From a virus, in the IMG/VR virus record IMGVR_UViG_3300044733_000695, positions 9,029 through 73,028 of that record: a stretch of DNA of 64,000 bases; one strand, written 5' to 3'. A program made the position numbers and the translations under genes. How positions within the stretch are numbered: position 1 is the stretch's first letter; every line of letters begins with the position of its first letter. Below the pieces are notes generated by a model. That model did not search any database, was not told the DNA's origin, and was given only the letters and a program-made list of their open reading frames with translations. Of the stretch, positions 4,502 through 58,926 are shown piece after piece.

Positions 4502-4770
4502 TTACCTATCGCGGCGAGCAGTTCGAGGGTTACAACAAACCCAAGCGGACGCCTAAGCATCCGACCAAATCGCACGCGGTACTGGCCAAGGATGGCGAAA
4601 CCGTCAAGTTGATCAGGTTCGGCCAGCAGGGGGTATCTGGCTCACCACCACGAACAGGAGAAACAGCAGCAGCGAAGGCCAGACGGGCATCATTTAAAGC
4701 AAGGCACGCCAGTAACATTGCTCGTGGGAAGATGTCACCGGCTTATTGGGCGGACAAGGTGAAATGGTAG
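4498..4770 (+). CDS. Small basic hypothetical protein
   Basis: KLIRFGQQG...RRASFKARH...AYWADKVKW; ATGA coupling. Confidence 0.7.
   Translation: MITYRGEQFEGYNKPKRTPKHPTKSHAVLAKDGETVKLIRFGQQGVSGSPPRTGETAAAKARRASFKARHASNIARGKMSPAYWADKVKW

Positions 4771-15624: not shown

Positions 15625-15628
<4 letters not shown>
14984..15628 (+). CDS. Tail assembly protein I (ubiquitin-like + Gly-rich hydrophobic segment)
   Basis: VKVYGAL...APVIAGAG; QGLPVPIAYG. Confidence 0.88.
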
Positions 15629-19440
<3,812 letters not shown>

Positions 19441-19468: not shown

Positions 19469-21184
19469 GTGGCTCAACACGATTACGTCATCGCGAACGG
19501 CACTGGTGCTGCTGTCCGCTCTGACCTGAACAACGCGCTGGCCGCGATCGTCAGCAACAACAGCGGCGCGACAGAGCCAGCAACGATGTATGCCTACCAG
19601 TGGTGGGCTGATACCAGCACCGGGCTGCTCAAGCTACGCAATGCTGCCAACAACGCTTGGATCACACTGAGAGAACTGGATGGCACGCTAACCATTGAGG
19701 CAGGTACGGTCTCGGCCCCTGGCTTGGCGTTCGCGTCGGACCTGAATACGGGCATCTATAGCCCAAGCGCTGATCAGCTTGCAATCGCAACCAACGGCGT
19801 CGAGCGCGTCGAATGGGGCACCAGCGAGGTGGTGTTCAACGATGGCGGCGCTAATTATGATTTCCGCATTGAAGGCGATACAAACTCTTCGCTTTTCTTT
19901 GTTGATGCGTCAGCAGAAGCGGTAGGGATTGGCACTGCTGCGCCTAGCTCCTTGGGAAGTAATGTAACAACGGTTGAAATCCAAGGACCTACAACTACAA
20001 GAAGTGGCGGGATTCGGCTGTCCTCTAGTGACAGTTCGCAGAAAAGCGCCTTTTATGTTTACGATGGCGCCGCAGTTCTTGGCACAGAAACTGCTCATCC
20101 TTTGGGTCTATACGTCAGCAACACTGAAAGATGCAGGGTCGATACATCAGGTCGTTTTTTAGTTAACACGTCTTCTAGCGTTCCGGTCCTTTCAACGGTC
20201 ACCGGAGCAGCAGTACAGGTCAATTCAAGTGCATTCGGATCTTACGCGCAAACTTGGTTTTATGGCGCAAATAACGAGTTTGCTCCAGTAATTATGCTGG
20301 CAAAAAGCAGAAATACCACCTACGGAAGTTATACAGTTGTCCAGAATAATGACCAGCTTGGAGGGCTTTGGTTTGCCGGTGATGACGGAACTGACTTAAA
20401 CCAGTCCGGCGCAAAAATTGAAGCCTTTGTAGACGGCACGCCCGGCAATAACGACATGCCGGGCAGGCTGGTCTTCAGCACTACCGCCGCCGGAGCGAGC
20501 AGCCCGACGGAGCGGATGAGGATAAACTCGTTTGGATCTATTGGTTTTGGATGTACTCCAGATGGTTCGGCGAGTACACTTGGCGTTCAAACAGGCGGCA
20601 GTGCTGGATGGTTAATAACAAAAAGAAATAGCAATCCTGCGTTGTTTGTCAACAGAGGCGTGGATGATGGTGACCTTGTATTGTTCTATCAAGCTGATGT
20701 TTCAGAAGGGTCTATCTCCGTCTCTGGCACCACCGTTAGCTACAACGGTGCTCACCTTTCCCGCTGGTCGCAGCTGCCTGGCGGCGCAACCCGCGAAGAA
20801 ATCTTACGCGGCACCGTGCTGAGCAACATCGACGAGATGTGCGCCTGGGGCGAGGAAGAAAACGAACAGCTCAACCGCATGAAAGTCTCAGATGTGGAAG
20901 GCGACCCCAACGTGGCCGGCGTGTTCCAAGCCTGGGATGACGACGACGACACCTACACCGACGACTTCTATTGCGCGATGACGGGTGACTTCATCATCCG
21001 CATTGCCGATGGCGTCACGGTGCAACGCGGTGATCTACTCATGTCCGCTGGTGATGGAACGGCCAAGCCCCAAGATGATGACATCATCCGCAGCAAGACC
21101 GTCGCCAAGGTGACTTCAACTCACGTCACCTGCACTTATGACGATGGCAGCTACTGCGTGCCCTGCGTGCTGATGGCTTGCTAA
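19469..21184 (+). CDS. Tail fibre protein, phage A
   Basis: HDYVIANGTGAAVRSDLNNAL N-terminus, ER(M/C)R(I/V) repeats, VPCVLMAC C-terminus. Confidence 0.85.
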   Translation: MAQHDYVIANGTGAAVRSDLNNALAAIVSNNSGATEPATMYAYQWWADTSTGLLKLRNAANNAWITLRELDGTLTIEAGTVSAPGLAFASDLNTGIYSPSADQLAIATNGVERVEWGTSEVVFNDGGANYDFRIEGDTNSSLFFVDASAEAVGIGTAAPSSLGSNVTTVEIQGPTTTRSGGIRLSSSDSSQKSAFYVYDGAAVLGTETAHPLGLYVSNTERCRVDTSGRFLVNTSSSVPVLSTVTGAAVQVNSSAFGSYAQTWFYGANNEFAPVIMLAKSRNTTYGSYTVVQNNDQLGGLWFAGDDGTDLNQSGAKIEAFVDGTPGNNDMPGRLVFSTTAAGASSPTERMRINSFGSIGFGCTPDGSASTLGVQTGGSAGWLITKRNSNPALFVNRGVDDGDLVLFYQADVSEGSISVSGTTVSYNGAHLSRWSQLPGGATREEILRGTVLSNIDEMCAWGEEENEQLNRMKVSDVEGDPNVAGVFQAWDDDDDTYTDDFYCAMTGDFIIRIADGVTVQRGDLLMSAGDGTAKPQDDDIIRSKTVAKVTSTHVTCTYDDGSYCVPCVLMAC

Positions 21185-21190
21185 GCCTCG

Positions 21191-21205
21191 TAGTCCTACT
21201 CACTA
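21191..21205. repeat. TAGTC-N5-CACTA site 1
   Basis: TAGTCCTACTCACTA, preceded by AAGCCTCG, 6 bp after the fibre stop. Confidence 0.85.
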
Positions 21206-21286
21206 ACGCAGATAGCCAGCCCAGCTTTATAGTGGTGGGGCAGCGAGTTTGCGGCTCCTGCCCCTGGCCACAGTTCCCTAGAAACC

Positions 21287-21643
21287 ATGACCCAAGAAGA
21301 CTACAGGTATCCCATTGCCCCGCCGCCGGAGCTGGTGCAGCAGTGGTACGACCAAGCCAAACAAGACCCATGTGGTCCAATTAACTGGGTTGCTGTCCGC
21401 GCCGCCCAATGGGGCGCCGACCAGGAGCTGGAGGTGTGCTGTGAGGCACTGGACAATTTGAATGATGGGTTCTGGAGTGAAAAACTCCGCGCCGCCCGCC
21501 GCCCCAAGCCGCAGAGCTTGAAGGAGCAGGCGTTACAAGCACTTTCTGAAGCCGTCAAAATGGCCGATGACGTCCCGCCAGAGGGGATTTGCTCAGGCCA
21601 AGCAGACATTATCCGCCACGCACTGGAGCAACTTGATGACTGA
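21287..21643 (+). CDS. Cassette gene, hypothetical
   Basis: PPPELVQQW...AAQWGADQELE...LRAARRPKP; upstream TATAGT and GGGGCAG/CTGCCCC hairpin. Confidence 0.75.
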   Translation: MTQEDYRYPIAPPPELVQQWYDQAKQDPCGPINWVAVRAAQWGADQELEVCCEALDNLNDGFWSEKLRAARRPKPQSLKEQALQALSEAVKMADDVPPEGICSGQADIIRHALEQLDD

Positions 21644-21713
21644 TTACCAGTCCACGGTACTTTCTGCCGTCTTGATTATTTTCATCATTATCGTTGATTG
21701 GCACTTCAAATGA
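21636..21713 (+). CDS. 25-aa hydrophobic peptide
   Basis: MTDYQSTVLSAVLIIFIIIVDWHFK; overlaps both neighbouring genes. Confidence 0.5.
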   Translation: MTDYQSTVLSAVLIIFIIIVDWHFK

Positions 21714-22030
21714 CTGACTTCCGAGAGCTGTGCGCCTGCATGGCTGACGAGCTTGATCATTACCGCCAGCTCCTAATGGATGATCGCCGCGAAACTCATG
21801 CGTTGGCGACCAAAGCCCGAGCCGCCCTAGCCCAGCCCGAGCCGGTGGCGCCTACGGATGAGGAGCTACTGGAGCTGATGCCTGAGACCATGCGGGATGA
21901 GTTTTCCTACGCGGCCAAGGTCTGCTCTGACGCAACCGGCGGCAAAGTCGAACCCGGCATCTTTCGCGTGGCGCTCAACACCGCTGCGCTGGAGTACGCC
22001 CAAGCTGTTTTGGCTCGTTACGCCCATTAG
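21710..22030 (+). CDS. Cassette gene, hypothetical
   Basis: MTDFRELC...RAALAQPEPVAPTDEEL...AVLARY; stop codon is the TAG of site 2. Confidence 0.75.
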   Translation: MTDFRELCACMADELDHYRQLLMDDRRETHALATKARAALAQPEPVAPTDEELLELMPETMRDEFSYAAKVCSDATGGKVEPGIFRVALNTAALEYAQAVLARYAH

Positions 22031-22042
22031 TCATTCCCACTA
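22028..22042. repeat. TAGTC-N5-CACTA site 2
   Basis: TAGTCATTCCCACTA. Confidence 0.85.
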
Positions 22043-22067
22043 AAACCTTTTTGTTGATGTCACCAAA

Positions 22068-22361
22068 ATGGTCCGAATCATTCGACAATGGTTATCGAAC
22101 CGCCGTGCTAGGCGTGTCCTGAATCAGCCCGCCCCGTGGGAACGGCAGCTCATCCCAAACATGGGTATGAGATACCGGCATGACTACGGGCTGCTGAATG
22201 AAGACGAACGCGCTGCCGTGGATCAGCAGATGCTTCAGCTTGCAGAGGAGGTGGTGACGTGGTTCCGTCGTGAGGCTGATAACCACCATCTCAGCGTTGG
22301 CGGCGCGATCCTGCGGTTCAAGGCATCCAACATCCTTGAAGACCACATCAAAGCCTCGTAG
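22068..22361 (+). CDS. Cassette gene, hypothetical
   Basis: 97 aa; fills the interval between sites 2 and 3; stop codon is the TAG of site 3. Confidence 0.7.
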   Translation: MVRIIRQWLSNRRARRVLNQPAPWERQLIPNMGMRYRHDYGLLNEDERAAVDQQMLQLAEEVVTWFRREADNHHLSVGGAILRFKASNILEDHIKAS

Positions 22362-22373
22362 TCACCTTCACTA
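22359..22373. repeat. TAGTC-N5-CACTA site 3
   Basis: TAGTCACCTTCACTA, preceded by AAGCCTCG as in site 1. Confidence 0.85.
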
Positions 22374-22410
22374 GACACCCGTCTTAGACTCCCACCAACC
22401 ACACAGCATC

Positions 22411-22740
22411 ATGAGCATCACCTACAACTGGGCCATCGCCAACCTAGAACGCGAGGTTTCGGACGGTTACGTCTTTACCGCGCACTGGACGGTGGTGGGC
22501 ATCTCTGATGACGTTGACCCCGAAGGCAATCCCTACAACTCCGGTGCCTATGGCTCCATGGGTCTGGAGCGTCCTGAGGGCAGCATGATCCCGTTCAGCC
22601 AGCTCACCCAAGAGCTTTGCGTTCAGTGGGTCAAGGACAAGTTTGGCCCGGATAAGGTCACCGAGATCGAGGAAGCGCTCGCTGCACGGATCGTAGACCA
22701 GCAGTTTCCGACCGTTGAAGCTGGCGTCCCGTGGCAGTAA
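22411..22740 (+). CDS. Tail fibre-associated protein (chaperone-like)
   Basis: YNWAIANLERE...IPFSQLTQE...GVPW, a type I recognise downstream of fibre genes. Confidence 0.65.
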   Translation: MSITYNWAIANLEREVSDGYVFTAHWTVVGISDDVDPEGNPYNSGAYGSMGLERPEGSMIPFSQLTQELCVQWVKDKFGPDKVTEIEEALAARIVDQQFPTVEAGVPWQ

Positions 22741-22868
22741 AAGCAAAGGCTGGTCTAAGCGGCACCGTCCGCAAGGATCCTGTCCCCAAGACAACCAGCC
22801 AAGGGCAAGGGCAGCGCTCCAGGCCGCGACGTCGTGGCCGCAAAAAGCTGCGCGGGCAGGGTCGTTAA
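22731..22868 (+). CDS. Small basic protein
   Basis: GTG start; MAVKAK...KTTSQGQG...KKLRGQGR. Confidence 0.6.
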   Translation: MAVKAKAGLSGTVRKDPVPKTTSQGQGQRSRPRRRGRKKLRGQGR

Positions 22869-22877
22869 ACTGATTAC

Positions 22878-23126
22878 ATGATCGAGGTCATCGCTGCTAT
22901 TGCTGGAGCGTCGATCTCCGTTGCCGCGATGGGCGCGATGGGCTTTAGCCGTCGCAACGATGAAGCACGCGAAGCTGTAATTAGACTGACCGCTGCCGTA
23001 GAGCATATTGCCACACAGCTAGAGGTGCTGCATAAGGACATCAAGGAGGACCGTAAGGAAACTTTTTCACGTCTTAATGGCGTTGAGCAGCGCGTGACTA
23101 TGCTTGAGGCACGGCCTACACGCTAA
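22878..23126 (+). CDS. Membrane-anchored coiled-coil protein (lysis cassette)
   Basis: N-terminal hydrophobic helix plus heptad pattern. Confidence 0.65.
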   Translation: MIEVIAAIAGASISVAAMGAMGFSRRNDEAREAVIRLTAAVEHIATQLEVLHKDIKEDRKETFSRLNGVEQRVTMLEARPTR

Positions 23127-23458: not shown

Positions 23459-24517
23459 ATGGTCAAACTGAGCGACCTGTTCCGGTACTACAAGCACGGC
23501 ACGCCGCATCAGATGGCGGCCATCTCTGAATTGGAAGCAGAGCTGTTAAAGGTTGCGCCTGCAATCTTGAATAGGGACCAAGCCTGGTACAAAACCTGGC
23601 AGCAAGGCGGCAAGCTGCATAATTATGGGCCAGCGATAAAGCTGATAAAAGAGTTTGAGGGCTGCCACCTAAGCGCTTACCCTGATCCGCTTAGCGGCGG
23701 CGACCCGTGGACCATCGGCTATGGCACCACCAGGTACAGCGATGGCCGCAAGGTGCAACGCGGCGACAAGATTACAGTTATTGAAGCCAGCAGCCTGCTT
23801 GAACTTGAGATAGACCGCATTGCCGCCAAGCTGCGTGCGACGGTGCCGTTTTGGAATGCCATGAGCGGCAACCAGCAATGTGCGCTGATTAGCTTTGCCT
23901 ACAACCTGGGCAGCGGGTTCTACGGATCCGAAGGATTCGAGACGATCAGCAAGCGCCTGAAAGAGAAGGACTGGGCAGGGGTGCCAGCAGCGATGCTGTT
24001 GTATCGCAACCCCGGCACCAGCGTCGAGGCTGGTTTGCTACGTCGCCGGCAGGCAGAAGGCAGACTGTGGGTTGGCGATCAGCAGCAGGGAGCAGCCAAA
24101 CTGACGCCTAGCAGTCCGTTCAGCGCACGGATCACGCCGCACATCCGAATCGGTGAGTTTGCGCTAGACCAAGAGGCACGGCGCTTTGATCACCAGTACC
24201 AAGTAGATACCGCAGCTGAGCTGGCAGCATTCCTAGAACGCGCTCGTGGTGCATTTGGCAACAAGCCGCTCATCATCACGTCGGGTTACAGACCAGCAAT
24301 CATCAATCGGCAGGTAGGTGGTGCCAGCGGCAGCGAGCACCTATTTAATGCGCCTGGCGTGGGTGCAGTTGACTGGTATATCAACGGCGTGGACATCTAC
24401 AAGCTGCAGGACTGGTGCGTCAAGCATTGGCCATACAGCACTGGACTAGGCGCACCCAAGGGCTTTATCCATACCGGCATCCGTCAAGGCAGGCCGCGTC
24501 TCACTTGGCCTTATTAG
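23459..24517 (+). CDS. Endolysin: GH24 lysozyme + M15 peptidase
   Basis: EFEGC...YPDP...WTIGYG and GLLRRRQAE; ITSGYR...SEH...AVD...FIH. Confidence 0.88.
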   Translation: MVKLSDLFRYYKHGTPHQMAAISELEAELLKVAPAILNRDQAWYKTWQQGGKLHNYGPAIKLIKEFEGCHLSAYPDPLSGGDPWTIGYGTTRYSDGRKVQRGDKITVIEASSLLELEIDRIAAKLRATVPFWNAMSGNQQCALISFAYNLGSGFYGSEGFETISKRLKEKDWAGVPAAMLLYRNPGTSVEAGLLRRRQAEGRLWVGDQQQGAAKLTPSSPFSARITPHIRIGEFALDQEARRFDHQYQVDTAAELAAFLERARGAFGNKPLIITSGYRPAIINRQVGGASGSEHLFNAPGVGAVDWYINGVDIYKLQDWCVKHWPYSTGLGAPKGFIHTGIRQGRPRLTWPY

Positions 24518-25576: not shown

Positions 25577-25859
25577 TGGCTCCAACCTCGTATCAAAACG
25601 CAGCGCAAAGCATCAATTTAGACAGCAAATTTTTGAAGCATGGGGCCATACATGCGCGTATTGCGGCGCCCCGGCTGACACGCTAGACCATGTGAAGCCA
25701 CGTCATAAAGGTGGCGCTACTGTTGCTTGCAATCTTGTACCGGCGTGCAAGAATTGCAACCGTAAGAAAGGCAGCGAGGAATGGCGCGAATGGTTTAGCC
25801 GTCAAGATTCGTGGTCTGTTGATCGCGTTCTAAAGATTCAGGATTGGTTGGTTGATTGA
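25560..25859 (+). CDS. HNH endonuclease
   Basis: CAYC...TLDHVKP...NLVPACKNCNRKK. Confidence 0.88.
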   Translation: MDHLIDGSNLVSKRSAKHQFRQQIFEAWGHTCAYCGAPADTLDHVKPRHKGGATVACNLVPACKNCNRKKGSEEWREWFSRQDSWSVDRVLKIQDWLVD

Positions 25860-25977
25860 GCATCTGATGGTAAAAAATCAGTGCTTGCCACTGCTGCCTG
25901 TGCTCTCGGCACATACCGTTGAAGCAAACCCTCCATACATCCTGATAGCGGCTGATTGTTGGTTTCGACATGGCCAA
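25795..25977 (-). CDS. Hypothetical protein
   Basis: C..GMCR...WQA motif shared with 32283-32456. Confidence 0.5.
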   Translation of the reverse strand: MAMSKPTISRYQDVWRVCFNGMCREHRQQWQALIFYHQMLNQPTNPESLERDQQTTNLDG

Positions 25978-26851
25978 GCGGGGTATTGCTTAATGGGTTG
26001 CTCATCAGCATACGAAGGCGGCTAATGCCACGACGCTCTAGGTTTTGCAGCTTGGTGCGGCTGACGCCTGTTTGTTGTTCAAGTTGCGCCCAGGTGACAG
26101 GCCGCGCAAGGTTTCTGGCATGGATTACCTGTTTGGTCAACGGGTCTAAGTATTTGTTAAAACAATCCATCAATTCGCGTATCTCTTGCCGGGTTTCTAT
26201 CAGGTCATTGTCGTAGTTAGGGTCAGCAATGTTGTCACCGATGCATGTGGTCTCGGTGTCAGCAACACGCTGGTCTAGGCTTGTCACTTTATAGGTTTGC
26301 TTTAACAAGTATGACAGTTCTTCTACATCCATATCCAGTGCGTTAGATATTTCGCTCATGGTTGGCTGTCTGCCGATCTTATGGCTTAGATCCTGCATGG
26401 TGCGGTTTATCTTGTACAGCATCTCATGCAAACTGGTTGGCAGGCGAATTATGGAGTCATGCTGGATCAATGCCCGCGTAATGCCTTGCCTGATCCACCA
26501 ATAGGCATAAGTTGAAAACTTGTAACCGCGTGACGGGTCGAATAGCTCAACCGCACGCGCAAGGCCGATATTGCCCTCTTGGATCAAGTCCATCAACTCA
26601 AGCGTCTTATTGCTGCGCTTGTCGTACTTGCGGGCTACATGGACTACAAGCTGCAGGTTGGACTTAATAAACCGTTGCCTAGCGCGTTCACCGCTTCGCA
26701 ACTCGCGTTGCTCATCACGGGTTAGCTCCCTGTCGCATTGTCTTAATTCTTGCCATCTAATGACACGCCTGCCGAGTTGTATCTCTTGTTGCGGTGTCAG
26801 TAGTGGATATTTGGCGATACTGTTGAGGTAGTCTTTGATGCTGTCGGCCAT
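25838..26851 (-). CDS. RNA polymerase sigma factor, cyanobacterial RpoD-like
   Basis: YLNSIAKYPLLT region 1.2; DLIQEGNIGL and GYKFSTYAYWWIRQGITRA region 2; divergent region 4. Confidence 0.92.
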   Translation of the reverse strand: MADSIKDYLNSIAKYPLLTPQQEIQLGRRVIRWQELRQCDRELTRDEQRELRSGERARQRFIKSNLQLVVHVARKYDKRSNKTLELMDLIQEGNIGLARAVELFDPSRGYKFSTYAYWWIRQGITRALIQHDSIIRLPTSLHEMLYKINRTMQDLSHKIGRQPTMSEISNALDMDVEELSYLLKQTYKVTSLDQRVADTETTCIGDNIADPNYDNDLIETRQEIRELMDCFNKYLDPLTKQVIHARNLARPVTWAQLEQQTGVSRTKLQNLERRGISRLRMLMSNPLSNTPLGHVETNNQPLSGCMEGLLQRYVPRAQAAVASTDFLPSDAQSTNQS

Positions 26852-28932: not shown

Positions 28933-29147
28933 GGGTTGATTGGTGTAATGGAATGGGTCTCTTCAAAGGCCAGTACATCAGGCAGGTTGTACCTGACGCG
29001 GGACTGGCCGAGTGGACATCCTAGCCTCGGGACTGTGTAATAGCTAGGTCCTTGGCCGCGTAATCGTTGAGACTTAATGCTGGACGGCTTGAGGCCCCAA
29101 CGCTCGGCTAGTTGCTCAGTTGTCAGATAACTCATTCTCTTTTTCAA
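28929..29147 (-). CDS. AlpA/excisionase-like HTH protein
   Basis: [10 protein letters not shown]...GPSY...VRY. Confidence 0.75.
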
Positions 29148-29862
29148 GCATTAGTTGCAAAAGTTGATCGTGCTGCTCTTGGCTGATCTCACCGGCTTCT
29201 AGCCGTGCCGCCATACGCGGTTGCAGGTCTTCTAGATCCTGCAGGGTTTTGGCCTTAGCGATGGCCGCCTTACCAGCGGTGAACGTCTTGCTGCTGTCTA
29301 CCTTGGTGGTAGCAGGCAGCTTGACCTGCTCAGCTGGCGTGACCGTAACAGTCTCGGCTTGGTCCATTTCGTCGGTGCTGTACACACCAGACATGTCGGC
29401 AGGGAATGCCTTACGAAGCGCCAGCGCCTCAGAGCATTTGGCAATCATGGCGGCTGGCATTTTGGACCACAGCCCTTGGCCGGCGTTGTAGTCAGCAAAG
29501 CGGGCAACACCAATAAAAGGGTGTTGGCTGCCTTTGCGATGCACGATGGTCTTAGCTGCAGCGGGCGGCTTGCTGGAGAGCCATACGTCGCGCCATTCGC
29601 CTTCATCACCACACCAGTACGTCTCGCTGCCGTCTAGTTGTCCGGTGCGTTCGGCAATGGCACGCAAACCGTCAATGCCGGCCTGAATGGTCATCTTGCC
29701 GCCACGCTTGATGGCGTAAATCTGCTTGCTGAATGGGTCAAGGCCAGTGCGCTGGCACGCATAGGCGAACAGCCGCAGCTCATCATTGCTGCAGCCTGGC
29801 GCAATGGTGCTGCTAATAAGCTGCGTTTGCTCTGGGGTCCAAAGGGTGATAGCGGTTGACAT
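29116..29862 (-). CDS. bet: Single-strand annealing protein Bet (Red-beta family)
   Basis: [43 protein letters not shown]. Confidence 0.88.
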
Positions 29863-30656
29863 CAGAACTCGATGGGTGATTGCTGGTTGGCATTAAGTGC
29901 CCAGCCGGGCAGGCTGAGCGTTTGGACTGAGGTGTCGCCGTAGCCGGGCCACATGTCAGCGGCCTTGCAGGTGGCGATCACGTCCAGTGCATTATCGCGC
30001 ATGGTCCGCCCTAGTGCCATAGCGGCATGGTCCAGTTCGTAAACGGCGACCGCATACGGCGCAGTCTTTTCCACTGCGATAAACACAAACCGGCCAGCAC
30101 CGTGCAAACCAGCGAGGTAATGCGCTGCCTGGACGTGGTAGGCGAAGGTCGCCACGCTACGCGCAAACGCTGCAGGGCTGGCGTCTTGGCATGTCTTCAG
30201 GTCAACGATGGTGCTGCCTTGATACCAGTCTGGGCGGCATTTGCAGCGCAGTCCTGTTGGCAGGTCATCCCACCAGAACGACTGCTCAGCCTTGCCATGA
30301 GCGAGCAGCGCTGATGCAGCAGGATGCCGTCGGACGCTATCGGCCATGCAGTTAGCGGTCAGCATGTCGCCGGCCGTTACGGCTTCGATGCCAGCAGTAG
30401 CCATCTGCTCAGCCTGTTCCTTGCCTGCTTTGGTGTTGCGTGGCCCGCAGACGCCATAGCGGGATGACAGCTCATCAGGCTCCAGCACGGCGCAATGCAC
30501 CAAGCTGCCTAGCTTCATCGCTGCTGTCGGTTCAACCGGCAAGCGATGCGGGTCCAGATATCGCGCCCAATAGTGGTAAGGCGATTGCATTACCGCTTTG
30601 AGGTGACTGGCGCTGACGGCTGGGTCGGCGTGATAGTCGGCACTAGAGATGGTCAT
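29862..30656 (-). CDS. Exonuclease VIII-like PD-(D/E)XK nuclease (DUF3799-like)
   Basis: [32 protein letters not shown]. Confidence 0.88.
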
Positions 30657-36771: not shown

Positions 36772-36957
36772 TTAGTCGTGAGTGATGGTGTTGGCCTGTT
36801 CGTAACGCTCCACCTCGGCCAATGGGTAGAGCACGCGCCCTTCGATGCGCGCATAGGCTGGCCCAGTTGCCTGCCGGCGCCACCTAAGCAGCGTCTGCCG
36901 GTGAACTTGCCATCGTGCAGCCAACTGCACATCAGTCAAAAAATCAGAAGAGTTCAT
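36772..36957 (-). CDS. AlpA/excisionase-like HTH protein
   Basis: FLTDVQLAARW...GPAY...RVLYP. Confidence 0.75.
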   Translation of the reverse strand: MNSSDFLTDVQLAARWQVHRQTLLRWRRQATGPAYARIEGRVLYPLAEVERYEQANTITHD

Positions 36958-37612
36958 CAGTCACCACCTCCACGGGTTCGGGCTCAGGCTGAGCGATCGC
37001 AGCGTTCAACTGATCCAGGCTGGTCTTCGGCAATTCAGGCTTGACCGTCACCGGCTCAATGTCAACTACTTCCTCCTGCGTCTGGATGCCGACCAACAAC
37101 TCAGGGATGTAAAGCCGCCCCCAGAAAGCCGCGGCCCTGTACCTGATCATCAGATCCGGCATGGTCTGCCACTTGCTGCCTGATTTCGTTGCCCATCCTT
37201 CCTTCTTGGCCATCGCCATCGTGACGGTTGGCCCGCGCAAATCTTTGCCACTGGCCAGCTCGGTGGCGACACAGGTGCAGGCCAAAGAGTCGCCCTGACC
37301 TGTCACCTCATACTGCAGCGGGCTGAAGCGGCCGCAGCCGTTGATCAGGCCGATGATGAACTGGCTGCTCCACGATGGGCGCCCATGGATGATGTGCAGG
37401 TTCTGCATCACCTGGAAGGGTGACATCCGCATCCGGTTCGCAATCTCAAGCGCAACCAGGCAATTGGCGAACCCTTGCTGTCCTTGAAATTGCGGCGGGA
37501 TCAACGTGCTGCTAGCCAATGCCTTGGCGATCCGTTGAGCGTCCTCGAAGGCTTGAATGCCCGAGAACACCGAACCTGCTGGCTGGGTGGTGATCGCTGT
37601 GGATTCGGTCAT
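36944..37612 (-). CDS. RecT-like single-strand annealing protein
   Basis: VMQNLHIIHGRPSW, KWQTMPDLMIRYRAAAFWGR; next to the exonuclease. Confidence 0.72.
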   Translation of the reverse strand: MTESTAITTQPAGSVFSGIQAFEDAQRIAKALASSTLIPPQFQGQQGFANCLVALEIANRMRMSPFQVMQNLHIIHGRPSWSSQFIIGLINGCGRFSPLQYEVTGQGDSLACTCVATELASGKDLRGPTVTMAMAKKEGWATKSGSKWQTMPDLMIRYRAAAFWGRLYIPELLVGIQTQEEVVDIEPVTVKPELPKTSLDQLNAAIAQPEPEPVEVVTDELF

Positions 37613-37614
37613 GA

Positions 37615-38457
37615 TCAGTAGGTTTCGATTTCAGTGGGTGGTTGCATCGTCGATCCATCCGGCCGCGGCAGCATCCATGGCGGCAGGCTGATCGGCTCGA
37701 TCTGGTCGCTGTAACCAGGCCAGACGTTGCCAGCCTTGCAAGTGGCAAGCACATCCAGATCGCGGGCAGCAGTCTCGGCGCCGATCGTCACCATTACCGG
37801 CGACGCGGCATAAACCGCCACGCAATAGGGCGGACGCTTTTCAACGCAGATAAACAAGAACTGATCAGGTCGGTGGCCGGTTGCGTGCTCGATGCCGTCC
37901 AGATACCAGCTGGCTTGGACGTGATACCGATAAGCGCCGATCGACTTGCGAAACCCTTCGGGGCTGGCATCCTCGGTCGTCTTCAGGTCAACGATCAGGT
38001 TGCCGTCATTGGTCAGCCAGTCGGGGCGGCACTTACAGGCCAGACCCGTCGCCTGATCAGTCCACATGTGGGTGGTCTCCGCCTTGCCCTGCCAATGAAG
38101 CAGCGCCGCTGCTGCTGGATGCGACCACACAGCTTCAGCCATGCGGCTGATCTGCGCGCGATCGTCGGCCGCGATCAGCTCACGACCGCCAGCTTCAGCC
38201 TCGAACTCTGCCCAGGCTTCTTTGCCCGCCTTGGTACGGCGATCGACCTGCGGCGCCGTGACGTAGCGGCTTTCGAATTGATCCTGCTCGAGCACCAGCG
38301 TGTGGATCGCGGTGCCGATACGCATCGCTGCGGTCGGCTCTGGCACCTCCCGCTTTGGGTCGAGGTAGCGCGCCCAGTAATGCAGCGGGCTGCGGGCCAC
38401 CAGGTCGAGGTGCGACTTGCTGACCGCTGGGTGGGCGTGATAGGTGGCGTTGTCCAT
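37615..38457 (-). CDS. Exonuclease VIII-like nuclease (DUF3799-like)
   Basis: YHAHPAVSKS, KCRPD, DLKT, YHVQASWY; likely ATG at 38457. Confidence 0.88.
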   Translation of the reverse strand: MDNATYHAHPAVSKSHLDLVARSPLHYWARYLDPKREVPEPTAAMRIGTAIHTLVLEQDQFESRYVTAPQVDRRTKAGKEAWAEFEAEAGGRELIAADDRAQISRMAEAVWSHPAAAALLHWQGKAETTHMWTDQATGLACKCRPDWLTNDGNLIVDLKTTEDASPEGFRKSIGAYRYHVQASWYLDGIEHATGHRPDQFLFICVEKRPPYCVAVYAASPVMVTIGAETAARDLDVLATCKAGNVWPGYSDQIEPISLPPWMLPRPDGSTMQPPTEIETY

Positions 38458-38477
38458 GGCGTGACGCAACAAGCCAC

Positions 38478-38506
38478 ATCGTATAGCATCAGCACACACG
38501 CTGCAA
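38478..38506 (-). promoter_or_regulatory. Promoter for the recombination operon
   Basis: TTGCAG-17 bp-TACGAT in the divergent intergenic gap. Confidence 0.55.
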
Positions 38507-38510
38507 CAGC

Positions 38511-40154
38511 TTGAACCTCCGCCCCTACCAACACCGCGCGATCGATGATCTCCGCAATGCCTACCGCTCAGGCGCGCGCGCGCCCCTGCTGGTGGCTCCA
38601 ACTGGGGCAGGCAAGACCGTCATCTTGGCCGCCATCACCGCGAGTGCCACAGCCCGCGGCCGCAAGGTGCTCATCCTTGTGCATCGACGTGAGCTGATCC
38701 ATCAAGCCAGCAGCAAACTCACAGCCGCCGGCGTCGAGCACGGCATTATCGCCGCTGGCGTTCAACGTGCAGATGCAACAGTCCAGGTCGCATCCGTGCA
38801 AACGCTCGTCCGCCGGCTCGCCACCACCGACTGGGAGCCGTGCCTGATCATCATCGATGAAGCACACCACGCCGCGGCTGGCTCCTGGTCGCAGATCATC
38901 AGCCACTGGCCTGGTGCGTTGCGCCTGGGCGTCACGGCCACACCTTGCCGCCTTGATGGCCGCGGCCTTGGCGACACCTTCGATGCGCTCATCGAAGGCC
39001 CATCGGTCCAGATGCTCACTTCGGCCGGCTACCTGTCACCCGCGCGGATCTTTGCGCCGCCCATCGTGGCCGATCTGTCGCAGCTGCGCCGCCGTGCTGG
39101 CGATTACGCCATCGACCAAGCTGCAGACGCCATGACCCGGCCAACGGTGACCGGTGACGCCATCCACCACTACCGCAAGCTGGGCGGCGCTCAGCAGGCG
39201 ATCGCGTTCTGCTGCAATGTCAACCACGCCGTCTCAGTTCGGGACTCATTTGAGACGGCAGGGATCAGCTCAGCTCTGCTGCTGGGCGAGACAGCCGATC
39301 GGGATGCGGTGGTTGCCGCGTTTGCGGCTGGCACCATCCGCGTGCTGGTGACGGTCGACGTCGTCTCAGAGGGATTCGACATCCCCGCCGCCAGCGTCGC
39401 CATCCTGCTAAGGCCGACCCAGTCGCTCGGCCTGTACCTGCAGCAGGTTGGTCGCGTGCTCAGGCCCGCACCAGGCAAGGACGCCGCGTTGATCCTCGAT
39501 CACGTCGGTAACGTCACCCGGCACGGCTTTCCTGATGACATCCGCCAGTGGTCGCTCGAGCATGGCGCCAAGCGCGCAGGTGGCAACGAGCAAGCGCCAT
39601 CAGTGCGGACATGTTCGCAATGCTTCGCGGCATTCAAGCCGGCACCAATCTGTCCATGCTGTGGCTTTAACTGTGTGCCTGATACCCACGAAATCCGCGT
39701 GGTAGACGGGGAATTAGTAGAAGTCGAAAAACCATGGAAACCTCGCCTAGGAGAAGAAGTGATATGTAATCTTTTTAGACAACGATATTACTTCGCAGGT
39801 ATAACCTCAACAGGTCAAGCAAGATTGTCGCTAGATCGCCTTTTCGCTGAAAAAGGAGAGTGTTCAATTCTTGAGGCAAAATCAGTGATAGACAGGCTTG
39901 GACATTTTGCAATTGTTAACGCAGACTTAGAAACATTGAAGCAAGTTGAACCAAGCCATGCGTTAAAAGCCGCTCGCCGCGAACAAGGCAAAGCCCAAAC
40001 CCTCCAGCAGCTCATCGCCATCGGCCATGCCCGCAACATGCGCAACCCCGTAGCGTGGGCCAAGCATGTGCTTTATGCCAGGTCGCTGAAGGATGGCCAA
40101 CGCCGAAACCACCCTGCAGCAGCAGATACGCCTGGCGGTCGGTTCCCGATCTGA
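38511..40154 (+). CDS. SF2 DEAD/DEAH helicase with C-terminal Zn finger
   Basis: PTGAGKT, IIDEAHH, TAT, EGFDIP, QQVGRVLR; CSQC...CPCC. Confidence 0.92.
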   Translation: MNLRPYQHRAIDDLRNAYRSGARAPLLVAPTGAGKTVILAAITASATARGRKVLILVHRRELIHQASSKLTAAGVEHGIIAAGVQRADATVQVASVQTLVRRLATTDWEPCLIIIDEAHHAAAGSWSQIISHWPGALRLGVTATPCRLDGRGLGDTFDALIEGPSVQMLTSAGYLSPARIFAPPIVADLSQLRRRAGDYAIDQAADAMTRPTVTGDAIHHYRKLGGAQQAIAFCCNVNHAVSVRDSFETAGISSALLLGETADRDAVVAAFAAGTIRVLVTVDVVSEGFDIPAASVAILLRPTQSLGLYLQQVGRVLRPAPGKDAALILDHVGNVTRHGFPDDIRQWSLEHGAKRAGGNEQAPSVRTCSQCFAAFKPAPICPCCGFNCVPDTHEIRVVDGELVEVEKPWKPRLGEEVICNLFRQRYYFAGITSTGQARLSLDRLFAEKGECSILEAKSVIDRLGHFAIVNADLETLKQVEPSHALKAARREQGKAQTLQQLIAIGHARNMRNPVAWAKHVLYARSLKDGQRRNHPAAADTPGGRFPI

Positions 40155-43956: not shown

Positions 43957-44496
43957 TTGCTGGTCACGTTCTCCGAGTTCGCGGCAATCAAGGGCTGCAC
44001 CAAGGCTGCGGTGACTCATGCAACAAAGAGTCGGATCGCTGCGGCGGTGGTTGAGCAAGACGGCAAGCGCTGGCTGGATCGTGACCTGGCGTTGGAGCTG
44101 TGGCGCAAGAACACGCTGAAGAACAACGCGGCGAAGGTGGACGAACCGGACCCGATCGAACCGCCACCACCACCACGGGATGCGCAAGAGCTGCGGCGCC
44201 GGGTGGAGGGGTTGCCTGATGATGAGATCCCGGAGCTGAACGAGAGCCGTGCGCGGCGCGAGCATTACCAGGCGGAGCTGGCCAAGCTGGAAGTGGACTT
44301 GAAGCGCCGGGAGCTGGTGCCAGCGGTGGAAGTGCAGAAGGAAGCGTTCGCGTTGGGGCGCAGCGTGCGCGAGGCACTGGCTAACTTGGCTGACCGGTTG
44401 AGCCACCAGCTGGCGGGTGAGACGGACCCGGCACGGATCCATGCGGTGCTGACGGATGAGCACCGGGCGGCGTTGGTGGAGCTGAGCAATGGCTAA
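43957..44496 (+). CDS. terS: Terminase small subunit (Nu1-like)
   Basis: N-terminal wHTH, ESRARREHYQAELAKLE...ELVP; precedes GpA. Confidence 0.8.
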   Translation: MLVTFSEFAAIKGCTKAAVTHATKSRIAAAVVEQDGKRWLDRDLALELWRKNTLKNNAAKVDEPDPIEPPPPPRDAQELRRRVEGLPDDEIPELNESRARREHYQAELAKLEVDLKRRELVPAVEVQKEAFALGRSVREALANLADRLSHQLAGETDPARIHAVLTDEHRAALVELSNG

Positions 44497-46351
44497 TCCA
44501 TGGCGCGATGGGTTCTTGGATGGGCTGCGGCCTGAAGATCCGCTGACGGTGAGCGAGTGGTCTGATCGTTATCGGAAACTGAGCAGCAAGGCGAGTGCTG
44601 AACCTGGGCCATGGCGCACCAGCCGGACGCCTTACCTGCGCGAGCCGATGGATTGCCTGAGCAGCAACAACCCGATCCAGAGGGTGGTGATGATGTTTGC
44701 TGCGCAGACGGGCAAGACGGAGGCTGGCAGCAACTGGCTGGGTTATGTGATCGACCACGCACCGGGACCGATGCTTTGCGTGCAGCCGACGGTGGAGATG
44801 GCGAAGCGGCTTAGCAAGCAGCGGCTCGAGAGCATGATCACCGACACGCCATGTTTGGCCGCGAAGATCGCGCCCAGCCGCAGCCGCGACAGCGGGAACA
44901 CGATGTTCAGCAAAGAGTATGCAGGCGGGATCATGTTGCTGACCGGGGCCAACAGCGCCACTGGTCTGCGATCGGCGCCGTGCCGCTACCTGTTCGCTGA
45001 CGAGGTGGACGCCTTTCCTAGCGATGTGGACGGCGAGGGCGACCCGGTGGCACTGGCCGAGCGGCGGACGACGACGTTCGCGCGTCGGAAGATCCTGCTG
45101 ACCAGCACGCCAACGGTGAAGGACTTCAGCCGGATTGAGGCGGAGTACCTGCGCAGCGATCAGCGGCGGTTTTATGTGCCGTGTCCGAGCTGCGGCGGAA
45201 TGCAGTGGTTGCAATGGCCGCGGCTGAAGTGGGATGCGAAGCGGCCGGGTGATGTGAGGTATCAGTGCGAGCACTGCGGCGAGCGGTTTGAGGAGAACCA
45301 CAAACCGGCGATGCTCGCGGCGGGCGAGTGGCGCGCGACCGCACCAAGCGATGGCAGGACGGCTGGGTTCCAGCTCAGTGGGCTTTACAGCCCGCTCGGG
45401 TGGTGCAGCTGGGAGCAACTGGTCGATGACTTCCTGCGGGCCAAGTCAGACGCGCCAGCGCTGAAGGCGTTTGTCAACACCCGGCTGGCTGAGACCTGGG
45501 AAGAGGACTATGCCGCGGCCGTGAGTGCTGATGGCTTGATGACCAAGCGGCTGGCGTATGAGTCGGGCACCTGCCCCGATGGCGTGGTGCTGCTGACGTG
45601 TGGCGTGGACGTGCAGGACAACCGGCTGGCGGTGAGCGTGTGGGGCTGGGGCGAGGGCGAGACGGGCTGGTTGATCTGGCACCAGGAGCTGATGGGCGAC
45701 CCGACGCAGGTGGAGGTGTGGGGCCAACTGGATCAGGTGCTGGTAACTGAGTGGGCCACGGCTGCGGGCAATGCGCTGAAGGTGTCGCAGGTGGCGGTGG
45801 ACAGTGGCGGCCACTGCACCCATGAGGTGTATCGGTATGTACGCGATCGCGTACGGCAAAACGTGGTGGCGATCAAGGGCAGCAGCAGACGCAACAGCCC
45901 AGCGGTGGGCAAGGGCAGCAAAGTGGATGTGAGCTGGCAGGGCCGGGTGCTGAAGCGTGGCGTGACGCTGTATCAGCTGGGCACTGACACGATCAAGACA
46001 ACCCTGTTCGGCCGGTTGCGGCATAACGAAGTGGGCGGCGTCGGGACGCTGCACTTCGGCATGGCTGCTGATGAGGAGTACTTCAGGCAGTTGACCAGCG
46101 AGCGGCAGGCATTGCGTTATCACCGCGGGTTTCCGATCCGTGAGTGGGTGAAGAAAGCTGGTGATCGAAACGAGGCGCTGGATTGCGTGGTCTATGCCTA
46201 CGCGGCGATGCTGCTGTTCTCGCGGCGGATGAACAAGGCGACGATGTGGCAGCAGCTGGCGGATCAGTTGGAGAACGGGAAGAAGGCGCCGCTAAGATCG
46301 AAACGGCAGCCGGCCTCTGCGGCTGCCAGTGGCTTTGTTACCAACTGGTAG
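44489..46351 (+). CDS. terL: Terminase large subunit, lambda GpA family
   Basis: AAQTGKT, LFADEVD, STPT, CPSC/CEHC, GVDVQ, RNEALDC. Confidence 0.95.
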   Translation: MANPWRDGFLDGLRPEDPLTVSEWSDRYRKLSSKASAEPGPWRTSRTPYLREPMDCLSSNNPIQRVVMMFAAQTGKTEAGSNWLGYVIDHAPGPMLCVQPTVEMAKRLSKQRLESMITDTPCLAAKIAPSRSRDSGNTMFSKEYAGGIMLLTGANSATGLRSAPCRYLFADEVDAFPSDVDGEGDPVALAERRTTTFARRKILLTSTPTVKDFSRIEAEYLRSDQRRFYVPCPSCGGMQWLQWPRLKWDAKRPGDVRYQCEHCGERFEENHKPAMLAAGEWRATAPSDGRTAGFQLSGLYSPLGWCSWEQLVDDFLRAKSDAPALKAFVNTRLAETWEEDYAAAVSADGLMTKRLAYESGTCPDGVVLLTCGVDVQDNRLAVSVWGWGEGETGWLIWHQELMGDPTQVEVWGQLDQVLVTEWATAAGNALKVSQVAVDSGGHCTHEVYRYVRDRVRQNVVAIKGSSRRNSPAVGKGSKVDVSWQGRVLKRGVTLYQLGTDTIKTTLFGRLRHNEVGGVGTLHFGMAADEEYFRQLTSERQALRYHRGFPIREWVKKAGDRNEALDCVVYAYAAMLLFSRRMNKATMWQQLADQLENGKKAPLRSKRQPASAAASGFVTNW

Positions 46352-46354
46352 GTC

Positions 46355-46924
46355 GTGAACATCCCCAGCGAAATCAGGGCCGGCGACACCATCCAGTGGA
46401 GGGATGTTCCTGGCGCTGACAATTTGGGGAATGCAATTGACAGCGGAAGTTGGACGCTGACCTACTACCTGCGGACGAACACGGCCAGCGAAGGCGCGAC
46501 GGTAGTGGGCACGGCCTACGGCACTGGATGGGAGTTCACGATCGCCGCGGCTACCAGCACAGGCTTCGACGCTGGGCAATGGTTTTGGCAGGCGGTCGCG
46601 ACCAAGACCGGCAGCACGGTCACGATAGGCTCGGGCCAGCTGATGGTTCTGCGAAGCCTTAGCTATAGCGGCACGCCTGGCGCGGTTGATGGCCGATCGC
46701 AAGCGCAGAAGGATCTGGACGCGGTGCAGGCGGCGATCCGCGCGATCGTGGCTGGCGGTGTTGCCAAGGAGTACACGATCGGCAACCGCAATCTGAAGAA
46801 GTACGACATGGCGGACTTGCTTCAGCTCGAGGCTAAGCTCAAAGCCGAGGTCAAGCGTGAGCAGATGGCGGACCTGATCGCCAACGGGCTCGGCAACCCG
46901 CACAACCTATTCGTGAGGTTCTGA
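46355..46924 (+). CDS. Head-tail joining protein (gpW-like C-terminus)
   Basis: EYTIGNRNL...L motif between terL and portal. Confidence 0.7.
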   Translation: MNIPSEIRAGDTIQWRDVPGADNLGNAIDSGSWTLTYYLRTNTASEGATVVGTAYGTGWEFTIAAATSTGFDAGQWFWQAVATKTGSTVTIGSGQLMVLRSLSYSGTPGAVDGRSQAQKDLDAVQAAIRAIVAGGVAKEYTIGNRNLKKYDMADLLQLEAKLKAEVKREQMADLIANGLGNPHNLFVRF

Positions 46925-48468
46925 TGGGTCTGCGCACGCGGCTATTCCGGGCGATGGGTTTTGAACCAGTGCGGCCGCAGCGGCGGGCGTATCAGGGCGC
47001 GCGCGTTAGCCGGCTGACCGCTGACTGGGTGACGAGCGGCACCAGCGCTGACAGCGAGATCAAGTCCAGCTTCAAGTCACTGCGCAATCGTGCGCGGCAG
47101 CTGGTGCGTGATAACGACTACGCCCGGCAGGCGGTGCGCGCGATCCAGAACAATGTGATCGGCCACGGCATCAAGCATCAGTCGCAGGTGCGGATGCTGC
47201 GCGGCGGGCAACTGGATGAGGCGATCAACGGCCAGATCCATGAGCAGTGGGAACGGTGGATGCATAAGAGCCGCTGTGATGTGAGCGGGCTGCTGGGCTT
47301 CCATGACATCGAGCGGTTGCTGGCGCGGAGCATGGCCGAGTCGGGCGAGGTGTTCGTGCGGATGATCCGCCGACCGTTTGGTGATTCGCGGGTGCCGTTT
47401 GCGCTGCAGATCCTCGAGGCGGATTACCTGATCGATGACGACGTGCCGCAGGCAGCGGACGGCAACACGGTTCGGATGGGCATCGAGGTGGACGGCTACC
47501 TGCGGCCCCAGGCTTATCACTTCTACGCGAACCATCCTGGCGACACCTATGCGGGCAACCCGCGGACCAATGGCCGGCGGATCCGAGTTCCTGCTGATGA
47601 GGTGATTCATCTGTTCCTGCCGGAGCGGCCGGGCCAGACCAGGGGCGTGACGTGGTTCGCGTCGGCGTTGATGCGGCTTCACATGCTGCAAGGCTATGAG
47701 GAGGCCGAGGTGGTGCGGGCGCGAGCCAGCAGCGCGCTGATGGGCTTCATCCAATCGCCTGAGGGCGAGCTGGTTGGGGATGAGATCTACGAAGGCGAGC
47801 GAGTTAGCGAGTTCAGTCCGGGCGTGTTCAAGTACCTGGCACCGGGCGAAAGCGTGACGGTTCCGGATCTGAATGCACCTGATGGCCAGCTTGAGCCGTT
47901 CACGCGGTCGATGCTGCGGGCCGTGGCGGCTGGTGTTGGCGTCAGCTTTGAGAGCATCAGCAAGAACTTCAGCGAGAGCAATTACAGCAGCAGCCGGCTA
48001 AGCCTGCTCGAGGAGCGCGACACGTATCGGGTGCTGCAGCGGTACATGATCGAGAACTTCCACCAACCGGTCTTTGAGGCATGGCTCGAGATGGCGGTGC
48101 TTAGCGGTGCGCTGAACCTGCCGGGCTATGAGACCAATCCTGATCGTTACCGGGCCAGCCGTTGGATCCCGAGGAGCTGGGAATGGGTGGACCCACAGCG
48201 CGAAGTGGAGGCGTACAAGACAGCCGTGCGGTGTGGCTTCAAGACACTGGGCCAGGTGATCAGCGAGCAAGGCGGCGATCTGGATGATGTGCTGATCGCA
48301 CGTCAGGCCGAGCTGGCGATGTTGGATGAGATGGGTATCGTGACAGACAGCGATCCGAGCGAGGTGACCGAGAGCGGCGTGGTGCATCCGATGCCAGTGC
48401 CTGAAACTGAGCCGCCGATGGATGATGAGGAAGAAGAGGACGACGAACCCCTCGAGCTGGACGACTGA
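46924..48468 (+). CDS. Portal protein, lambda family
   Basis: LRNRARQLVRDN, RPGQTRG, NYSSSR, WVDPQRE. Confidence 0.93.
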   Translation: MGLRTRLFRAMGFEPVRPQRRAYQGARVSRLTADWVTSGTSADSEIKSSFKSLRNRARQLVRDNDYARQAVRAIQNNVIGHGIKHQSQVRMLRGGQLDEAINGQIHEQWERWMHKSRCDVSGLLGFHDIERLLARSMAESGEVFVRMIRRPFGDSRVPFALQILEADYLIDDDVPQAADGNTVRMGIEVDGYLRPQAYHFYANHPGDTYAGNPRTNGRRIRVPADEVIHLFLPERPGQTRGVTWFASALMRLHMLQGYEEAEVVRARASSALMGFIQSPEGELVGDEIYEGERVSEFSPGVFKYLAPGESVTVPDLNAPDGQLEPFTRSMLRAVAAGVGVSFESISKNFSESNYSSSRLSLLEERDTYRVLQRYMIENFHQPVFEAWLEMAVLSGALNLPGYETNPDRYRASRWIPRSWEWVDPQREVEAYKTAVRCGFKTLGQVISEQGGDLDDVLIARQAELAMLDEMGIVTDSDPSEVTESGVVHPMPVPETEPPMDDEEEEDDEPLELDD

Positions 48469-52609: not shown

Positions 52610-52612
52610 GCC

Positions 52613-53044: not shown

Positions 53045-53170
53045 CAGCTACGATAATGGACGAACACAAAGGCCAGGGCGGCAGCTATCTGGTCGATCCC
53101 AAAACCGGCAAGCGAAAGCTCGTCGAGCGGACCCAGCCGGCCCCTCATCCAACCTCCGAGGTAGCCTCCG

Positions 53171-54109: not shown

Positions 54110-54114
54110 TCCGC

Positions 54115-54785: not shown

Positions 54786-54786
54786 G

Positions 54787-57461: not shown

Positions 57462-57464
57462 GCC

Positions 57465-58918: not shown

Positions 58919-58926
58919 AGCTGGCC

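Follow-up and report, generated by a model that had tools for sequence, protein, structure and literature searches.

A short conserved joint between variable accessory genes of cyanophages: a possible linker for cassette shuffling

Introduction

The turnover of accessory genes in phages, and the movement of fibre modules between phage families, are mostly explained by rare illegitimate recombination and subsequent selection. In lambdoid phages, accessory genes of the moron type lie at operon ends behind tail-fibre genes, and short conserved boundary or linker sequences mark the borders of modules. The attC sites of integrons are imperfect palindromes of about 57-141 bp with RYYYAAC...GTTRRRY ends, and core sites of the lox, FRT, and dif type have two inverted binding arms of about 11-13 bp. 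Promoter-early stem-loops (PeSLs) of T4-type phages are reportedly the subject of a paper by Comeau et al. from 2014 (PMC4122927). PeSLs have been reported to mediate shuffling in these phages (Arbiol et al., 2010, PMC2839356). Here we describe an array of small genes delimited by copies of the motif TAGTC-N5-CACTA in 64 kb of viral DNA, which correspond to bases 9029-73028 of the 73,028-base IMG/VR virus record IMGVR_UViG_3300044733_000695 and are referred to below as the window. Its DNA relatives in a phage collection are Synechococcus cyanophages. The array, the location of the sites at its joints, and its varying content are real. With a probability of about one half, the sites are a conserved intercistronic linker of freshwater Synechococcus-type cyanophages where homologous recombination shuffles cassettes in a PeSL-like manner.

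Results and Discussion

Three exact sites behind the tail fibre

The array and the two genes that enclose it comprise the following features (ORF, open reading frame; aa, amino acids).

19469-21184, plus strand: tail fibre, 571 aa, PHROG tail-fibre families
21183-21205, plus strand: site 1 with its left flank AAGCCTCG
21191-21205, plus strand: site 1, TAGTCCTACTCACTA (TAGTC-CTACT-CACTA)
21228-21286, plus strand: -10-like box (TATAGT) and hairpin leader, before c1
21287-21643, plus strand: c1, 118 aa, phrog_32006, an early-type multi-copy family
21636-21713, plus strand: c2, hydrophobic ORF of 25 codons, overlaps the c1 stop and the c3 start
21710-22030, plus strand: c3, 106 aa, ends on the TAG of site 2
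22028-22042, plus strand: site 2, TAGTCATTCCCACTA (TAGTC-ATTCC-CACTA)
22068-22361, plus strand: c4, 97 aa, ends on the TAG of site 3
22351-22373, plus strand: site 3 with its left flank AAGCCTCG
22359-22373, plus strand: site 3, TAGTCACCTTCACTA (TAGTC-ACCTT-CACTA)
22411-22740, plus strand: DUF7936 gene, PF25590, the usual neighbour of such fibres

Exact copies of TAGTC-N5-CACTA occur three times in the window, all on the plus strand and starting at 21191, 22028, and 22359, whereas only 0.03 copies are expected; none of 100 shuffles contained three or more, and the rest of the 73,028-base record holds no fourth exact copy. When up to two mismatches are allowed, the window contains 28 matches against 23.4 expected. 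This is chance level, and thus only the exact copies stand out. A previous interpretation made without database searches, the sequence-only reading, had already listed these three copies, the inverted TAGT/ACTA ends around a 7-bp spacer, the position of site 1 just past the fibre stop, the stop codons that sites 2 and 3 supply to the preceding genes, and a direct repeat shared by sites 1 and 3, and all of these observations hold. In every copy the center between TAGT and ACTA measures seven bases. The dyad does not extend beyond TAGT/ACTA; conservation is weak in the left flank and absent from the right one. Site 1 begins 6 bases past the end of the fibre ORF, which stops with TAA. ORF 21698/21710-22030 terminates at the TAG of site 2, and ORF 22068-22361 at that of site 3; AAGCCTCGTAGTC is common to sites 1 and 3. 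Consensus scans revealed neither promoter-like nor terminator-like matches on the three sites, an Rfam search of 20800-23000 gave no match at E up to 1, and the fold of 21180-21300 is no better than that of shuffles (z-score 0.22). No purine run of the Shine-Dalgarno kind was seen ahead of the cassette genes when their sequences were read.

The sites enclose one unit of 837 bp (sites 1-2) and another of 331 bp (sites 2-3). Both sizes had been given correctly by the sequence-only reading, and so had the TATAGT box (21228-21233), the hairpin (21237-21264), and the three overlapping genes of unit 1. The leader before c1 recurs in 24 distinct copies, with 87-100% identity, in other loci of otherwise diverged phages. 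It matches no Rfam family, and the consensus scan recognized no full promoter in it. In the copy of L333, changes are found on both sides of the stem. A terminator-like hairpin at 21654-21670 lies inside c2; in unit 2 the consensus scan found neither a promoter-like nor a terminator-like element. None of c1-c4 has a Pfam match, and c4 lacks a relative among the 125 loci fetched by fibre or DUF7936 (see below). The idea that c1 might be a hidden recombinase or DNA binder was rejected, as its model is all-helical (predicted local distance difference test, pLDDT, 78) and its best PDB match has an E of 1.8. The same idea was rejected for DUF7936, the model of which (pLDDT 93) consists of a three-stranded sheet and two helices and matches no solved structure in the PDB (best E 0.13, LptE-like). 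Copies of the c1 family in the early regions of other phages (L138, L224, L225, and L136) have no site within 400 bp.

Distribution of the motif among related phages

For comparison, 125 IMG/VR loci were fetched by fibre and by DUF7936, which together with the window amount to 1.23 Mb. The exact motif appears here in 46 distinct contexts and is co-oriented with the genes in 44 of them. Its confinement was assessed in the 57 non-redundant related loci that hold both a fibre end and DUF7936. On the plus strand, 23 exact copies fall within 26,517 bp of fibre-DUF7936 gaps and one within 552,367 bp outside these gaps; on the minus strand the counts are one and zero. When the complete records of five relatives (at zero or one mismatch) and of four isolates were scanned, exact copies again turned up only in such loci or singly. 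Because the exact copies are confined to such loci, the motif is not a dispersed operator. DUF7936 is the usual gene after such fibres (gap of at most 134 bp in 35 of the 57 loci), and the array indeed parts the fibre from the gene that normally comes next, as the sequence-only reading had assumed.

The gap between fibre and DUF7936 exists in three states. In 12 loci it spans 36-50 bp, with a one-mismatch copy of the motif in L121 and no site in the other 11. In the second state there is a single site (e.g., L128, L164, and L176), behind which a terminator-like hairpin and a TAAACT box often lie, and in the third state two to five sites are present with genes in between. The centers fall into the classes CTACT, ATTAC, ATTCC, GCTTC, ACCTT, CCCTT, and CACGC-like, which differ mutually by single bases. 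Every one of the 15-mers is found again next to different left and right flanks, and that of site 2 has 8 different flank pairs among the relatives. The core is often preceded by AAGCC(C/T)(A/C)G. In IMG/VR, the 23-base form consisting of AAGCCTCG and the site was found in 13 loci and that of AAGCCCAG and the site in 117, some of which sit on contigs already fetched by fibre or DUF7936. A first IMG/VR scan with only 14 fixed bases had yielded mostly chance matches and was not used for counts. Among the 130 motif-selected loci, DUF7936 starts at most 400 bp past a site in 45, and a c1-family gene lies at most 1.5 kb from a site in 58. The endolysin is on the opposite strand in 25 loci, an arrangement as in cases where the sites end small-gene operons and the lysis genes are convergent (e.g., L111 and L263). 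Further center classes (AGACC, AAGCC, and others) occur in these loci, often before a dCTP-deaminase-like gene, and the motif is also found in early-type small-gene operons far from any fibre. Thus, arrays of small early-type genes are the general setting of the motif, and the array of the window is one that lies behind a fibre.

The motif is also present in a phage of a different family. Synechococcus phage S-CBP4 (L254, NC_025464.1), an estuarine lytic T7-like podovirus, carries at 4634-4658, directly after its tail-fibre gene, 25 bases identical to window positions 21181-21205. Next come a terminator and a DUF7936 gene, the other flanks are unlike those of the window, and the exact motif occurs only once in the 44 kb genome. 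The presence of the site in a T7-like cyanopodovirus would agree with a promoter for a T7-type single-subunit RNA polymerase, and both the CACTA block and the 5+5+5 layout are reminiscent of T7-group promoters. When site 1 is compared with the 15 bases of the T7 promoter at -17 to -3, 12 of them agree. However, the center would be the specificity region of such a promoter and yet varies within one genome, S-CBP4 contains just one exact copy, and PF00940 found no match in the record, although it found none in control genomes either. This possibility is so improbable that it was rejected.

Another candidate, TAGTGTTCTCCACTA in the fibre genes of relatives, was also rejected as a site. It encodes the conserved fibre peptide LVFST (in the window in the form TGGTCTTCAGCACTA) and therefore is a coding coincidence. 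The fibre segment at 20416-20523 of the window encodes PGRLVFSTTAAGASSPTERMRI and gives rise to a one-mismatch look-alike of the motif in relatives; it shows about 80% DNA identity across sipho-, podo-, and myoviruses of Synechococcus and a very high contig depth in the lake runs. A literal literature search for the three 15-mers and DUF7936 retrieved no paper, and a topical search, judged by titles and abstracts, retrieved none that describes such joints.

Joint anatomy and cassette content

The anatomy of the joints was counted over 148 distinct contexts. In 115 of these, the frame that the TAG of the site terminates is open for at least 30 codons; the other two frames reach this length in 62 and 10. 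An ATG that opens at least 30 codons follows the site after 0-12 nt in 67 contexts, after 13-40 nt in 27, and after 41-150 nt in 46, and is lacking within 150 nt in 8. At sites behind fibres, a terminator-like hairpin comes next in place of a start codon. These figures bear on the possibility that the motif is purely an expression signal without any role in recombination, either a stop codon with a CA-rich, unstructured spacer and a restart, or a site of RNA processing or of protein binding to mRNA. The borders of mosaicism would then coincide with the motif only since viable recombinants must join at gene borders. Such a function would be in line with the co-orientation of motif and genes (44/46 contexts), with the use of TAG as stop (115/148) and the start codon within 12 nt (67/148), with the absence of Shine-Dalgarno-like purine runs before the cassette genes, and with the occurrence of the motif in early-type operons as well as behind fibre genes, including its retention by the lytic podovirus S-CBP4. 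It is nevertheless unlikely. The next start is 41-150 nt away in 46 of the 148 contexts and missing within 150 nt in 8, sites behind fibres precede a terminator-like hairpin and no start codon, and an identity of 15-25 bases across very diverged phages would seem to exceed the needs of a translation signal. The distribution of homology end points, discussed below, also disagrees with this explanation.

Cassette content was compared in a set of 20 arrays with 27 units, in which sites with up to one mismatch were counted if their center belonged to a known class. Most of the 27 units consist of one ORF that starts 0-7 nt past CACTA and ends on the next TAG, and the array ORFs form 21 clusters. 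The slot between ATTCC and ACCTT is occupied by at least 8 unrelated protein clusters, c4 of the window included, and clusters such as c1 or the MSELSP family are found in several different slots. The order of the center classes is the same across the 27 transitions; exceptions in a larger set are GCTTC before ATTAC or ATTCC, and ATTAC twice in one array. Flanks and centers re-assort on both sides, which is compatible with both cross-over models.

Break points at the sites and variants in lake populations

The last ~480-520 bases of the fibre gene are 75-91% conserved across most related loci, as judged from blastn end points, and in most loci the homology of the fibre to the window stops at 21180-21209. 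On the right-hand side, homology begins at 22349-22360 in 16 loci and at 22408, past site 3, in the closest relatives (the L120 group and other recombinase carriers). A set of 129 non-redundant segments of 1,615 bp, each with a site at its center, gave 1,588 homology end points, of which 388 lie in the site ±5 bp, compared to an expectation of 2.1%. Per 25-bp window, 2.26 end points were counted at each site, 0.61 at each other ORF end, and 0.19 in the background. Sites thus carry 3.7 times as many end points as other ORF ends do, in counts that are pairwise and therefore not independent and against control ORF ends that include spurious ORFs. This excess over other ORF ends speaks against a pure expression signal.

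Variants from natural populations were sought in Logan contigs of four lake-water metagenome runs, of which the covered parts were used. One variant joins position 21183 to 22368 via a single CTACT-type site, others join the end of c1 (~21634) to site 2 (~22020) without c2-c3, and another has a different right flank from directly after 21205. As these are contigs only, they show standing variants and not excision. Right after the c1 stop, at 21648-21662, the window contains CAGTCCACGGTACTT, a three-mismatch look-alike of a CACGC-class site; there are lake contigs from which exactly c2-c3 are missing.

For a locus of gene capture, the sequence-only reading had named as support alleles with one site, a varying number or order of cassettes with break points at the site, excised circles in reads, and a co-occurring recombinase; invariant content, break points unrelated to the motif, or a dispersed operator would have counted against it. 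No more copies turned up in the record, and in relatives the motif is family-wide. Single-site alleles are exemplified by L128, L164, L176, and the lake contig that joins 21183 to 22368. Cassette number and content do vary in relatives with break points at the motif. None of the three adverse outcomes was observed: the content differs, the break points fall on the motif, and the motif is not scattered. A tyrosine recombinase shares the locus in some relatives (23 of 125 loci).

A tyrosine recombinase in some relatives

Neither PF00589 nor PF00239 has a match in the whole 73-kb record, which extends to the entire record the statement of the sequence-only reading that the window lacks a recombinase. 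The enzyme present in relatives is represented by

L120:8304-9155: tyrosine recombinase, 284 aa, PF00589, E 6.9e-14

This 284-aa protein is encoded beside the fibre/DUF7936 pair in 23 of the 125 loci, and in 5 of 5 carrier records PF00589 matches no other protein. Among the 130 motif-selected loci, 5 contain it and 125 do not. It is also absent from each of 10 other motif-bearing records tested, of which three are rated 100% complete and one 85%. L120 itself comes from a 41-kb record rated complete; its lambda-J-like tail tip protein is 100% and its DUF7936 98% identical to those of the window. The region between its fibre and DUF7936 begins with a decayed CTACT site and TAGTCATTCCCACTT, after which come a short c1-like gene, TAGTCACCTTCACAA, and the recombinase, which starts nine bases after TAGTCACCTTCACAA and ends 30 bp before DUF7936. 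Among the carriers the gene mostly lies before DUF7936, sometimes after it, and sometimes is inverted, and the sites of carriers mostly are one base off the consensus. The protein is 85% identical to the integrase (gene A12) of Synechococcus phage S-LBS1, which likewise comes after a fibre and a decayed site. The authors who described S-LBS1 reported that they obtained no evidence of integration (PMC6157547). In NCBIfam, the recombinase has only weak matches, to XerC/XerD models, and no integron-integrase model appears up to an E of 1. A search by sequence retrieved no solved relative. A scan of genome contigs for the recombinase gave six loci in non-cyanobacterial genomes, with the three good matches in metagenome-assembled genomes. 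Upstream of the gene in L018, L318, L241, and L288, no site-like sequence travels with it.

The motif copies might therefore be regarded as minimal core sites of this recombinase, which would act in cis in its carriers and in trans, during co-infection, for phages like the one studied here. Like centers would recombine, and blocks between two unlike sites would be swapped, as in a natural form of recombinase-mediated cassette exchange. The fixed arms, the discrete center classes, and the same strand throughout would suit this model. The close relative L120 has the gene directly after TAGTCACCTTCACAA in the same locus, and the enzyme recurs in 23 of 125 loci as the sole PF00589 protein of 5 of 5 carrier records. 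Its S-LBS1 relative (85%) follows a fibre in a phage for which no evidence of integration was reported (PMC6157547), and the short protein appears to leave no room for an arm-binding domain, as in simple-site enzymes. Yet we consider this explanation doubtful. The recombinase was not found in the record, in the 10 other motif-bearing records, or in 125 of the 130 motif-selected loci, and where it exists the sites mostly deviate by one base from the consensus. Its variable position (before or after DUF7936, or inverted) fits a cargo gene. Furthermore, the dyad arms have only 4-5 bp instead of the 11-13 bp usual for tyrosine recombinases, a lytic T7-like podovirus retains the site, and the center classes are one base apart and re-assort with both flanks.

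A wider version of this model, a phage-borne cassette-exchange system in which the recombinase of some co-infecting phages swaps blocks between sites with matching 7-bp centers, across siphoviruses and podoviruses and beside the host-range (fibre) module, appears improbable as well. If it existed, recombinase-mediated cassette exchange would have a counterpart in nature, and a role other than lysogeny would be given to the 'integrase' of S-LBS1-like cyanophages.

A linker for homologous exchange

We favor, at the roughly even probability given above, the interpretation of the sites as a linker for homologous recombination. The linker would end one small gene by its TAG, usually shortly before the next start codon, and the block of accessory genes with such joints that lies between the tail fibre and DUF7936 would derive from early-type operons. 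Since many co-circulating phages have these 15-25 bases in common, the linkers could act as cross-over points. Homologous recombination within them would insert, delete, or replace the genes between two linkers, and a RecT/nuclease pair of the phage itself could plausibly perform the exchange. Two pairs of RecT and PD-(D/E)XK nuclease are encoded in the record.

29116-29862, minus strand: RecT, candidate enzyme for short-homology exchange
29862-30656, minus strand: PD-(D/E)XK nuclease, candidate enzyme for short-homology exchange
36944-37612, minus strand: second RecT-like gene
37615-38601, minus strand: second PD-(D/E)XK nuclease

Both the exchange inside the linker and RecT as its agent are inferred. 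The linker may also be kept for gene expression, through termination and restart of translation or through RNA processing.

Several points weigh against a linker of this kind. With 15-25 bases it is short for efficient recombination of the RecT type, and the exchange is deduced here from sequences. The ten outer bases are fixed over all N5 classes, which promoter, terminator, Rfam, and fold tests do not explain, and shared arms with class-specific centers resemble variant sites of one site-specific recombinase. In the L120 group the right break point is at 22408, 35 bases past site 3, and 11 of the 12 loci with a fibre-DUF7936 gap of 36-50 bp have no site. The interdependence of the end-point counts and the spurious ORFs among their controls belong to the same side of the balance. 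Irrespective of the mechanism, a defined joint of 15-23 bases borders accessory genes in well over 100 contigs of lake and estuarine cyanophages, beside a host-range gene, which makes it possible to catalogue cassettes in viromes by their joints.

Further features of the source record

The array is embedded in a region of structural and lysis genes.

15625-19440: lambda-J-like tail tip protein
22878-23126, plus strand: small membrane protein, holin-like
23459-24517, plus strand: endolysin

The J-like protein starts, at window positions 15625-16150, with two poly-Gly runs that frame a Hint/intein-like domain (CFPGYTLV ... IRVHN, then Ala), for which the Pfam models Hint and Intein_splicing give matches below their cut-offs. 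The J proteins of most relatives align only from about residue 172 and thus are without this domain. A sigma-70-type factor is encoded at 25838-26851 (minus strand), for which the Pfam models of regions 1.2, 2, and 3 match and that of region 4 does not. The window also includes two related head-tail modules (1-25400 and 44400-64000) with tape measure, minor tail proteins, J, and fibre, which share 27-60% aa identity. Because of these two modules, the record probably represents two phage genomes of ~36 kb each that are joined, either in tandem or as an assembly chimera, although it is rated 100% complete.

Comparison with known systems

The closest similarity is to the PeSLs. In both cases, small non-essential genes of a hypervariable region lie between short conserved sequences, at which insertions, deletions, or replacements between close relatives end; the exchange has been attributed to recombination between the repeats. 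PeSLs are composites of a sigma-70 promoter and a terminator stem-loop, whereas the motif is a joint of 15-23 bases with neither consensus. The motif also differs in that it overlaps a stop codon, has discrete center classes, and occurs in cyanobacterial sipho- and podoviruses. Mini-circles have been reported for PeSLs; the motif arrays are known from assembled contigs.

The sequence-only reading had taken the array for an integron-like capture locus. This view stands with regard to the varying cassettes with borders at the sites, but an integron mechanism is not supported: the type of site and the type of integrase differ (there is no attC, GTTRRRY, or IntI), and most carriers have no recombinase. 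Like integron cassettes, the units mostly have a single ORF in one orientation and each ends in a site-like repeat that the ORF may enter. Their content and number vary in relatives with borders at the sites, and a tyrosine recombinase lies beside the array in some phages. In contrast to integrons, the array has neither an IntI-type integrase nor attI, and the recombinase is absent from most carriers. Compared to attC, the conserved element has only 15-23 bases, without GTTRRRY or an imperfect palindrome of attC length. Moreover, the order of the site classes is largely kept, and replacement therefore fits better than insertion at one attI.

With respect to core sites of the lox/FRT/dif type, the 7-base center of the motif lies within the usual 6-8 bp, but arms of 11-13 bp are not present. 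Heterospecific lox/FRT sites and the Rci/sfx system also combine fixed arms with variant centers of ~7 bp, and one flank of the motif is better conserved, as in sfx. Yet the arms of the motif are far shorter, and this genome has no cognate enzyme. As all copies of the motif are direct repeats, inversion would not take place, unlike in shufflons. As with morons of lambdoid phages, the accessory genes are inserted behind the fibre, and unit 1 has a promoter-like box of its own. Unlike lambdoid linkers, however, the array has one defined motif at every joint, and this motif is common to different phage families. Linker-mediated modular shuffling is already known, and the cyanophage joints described here would be a variant of it.

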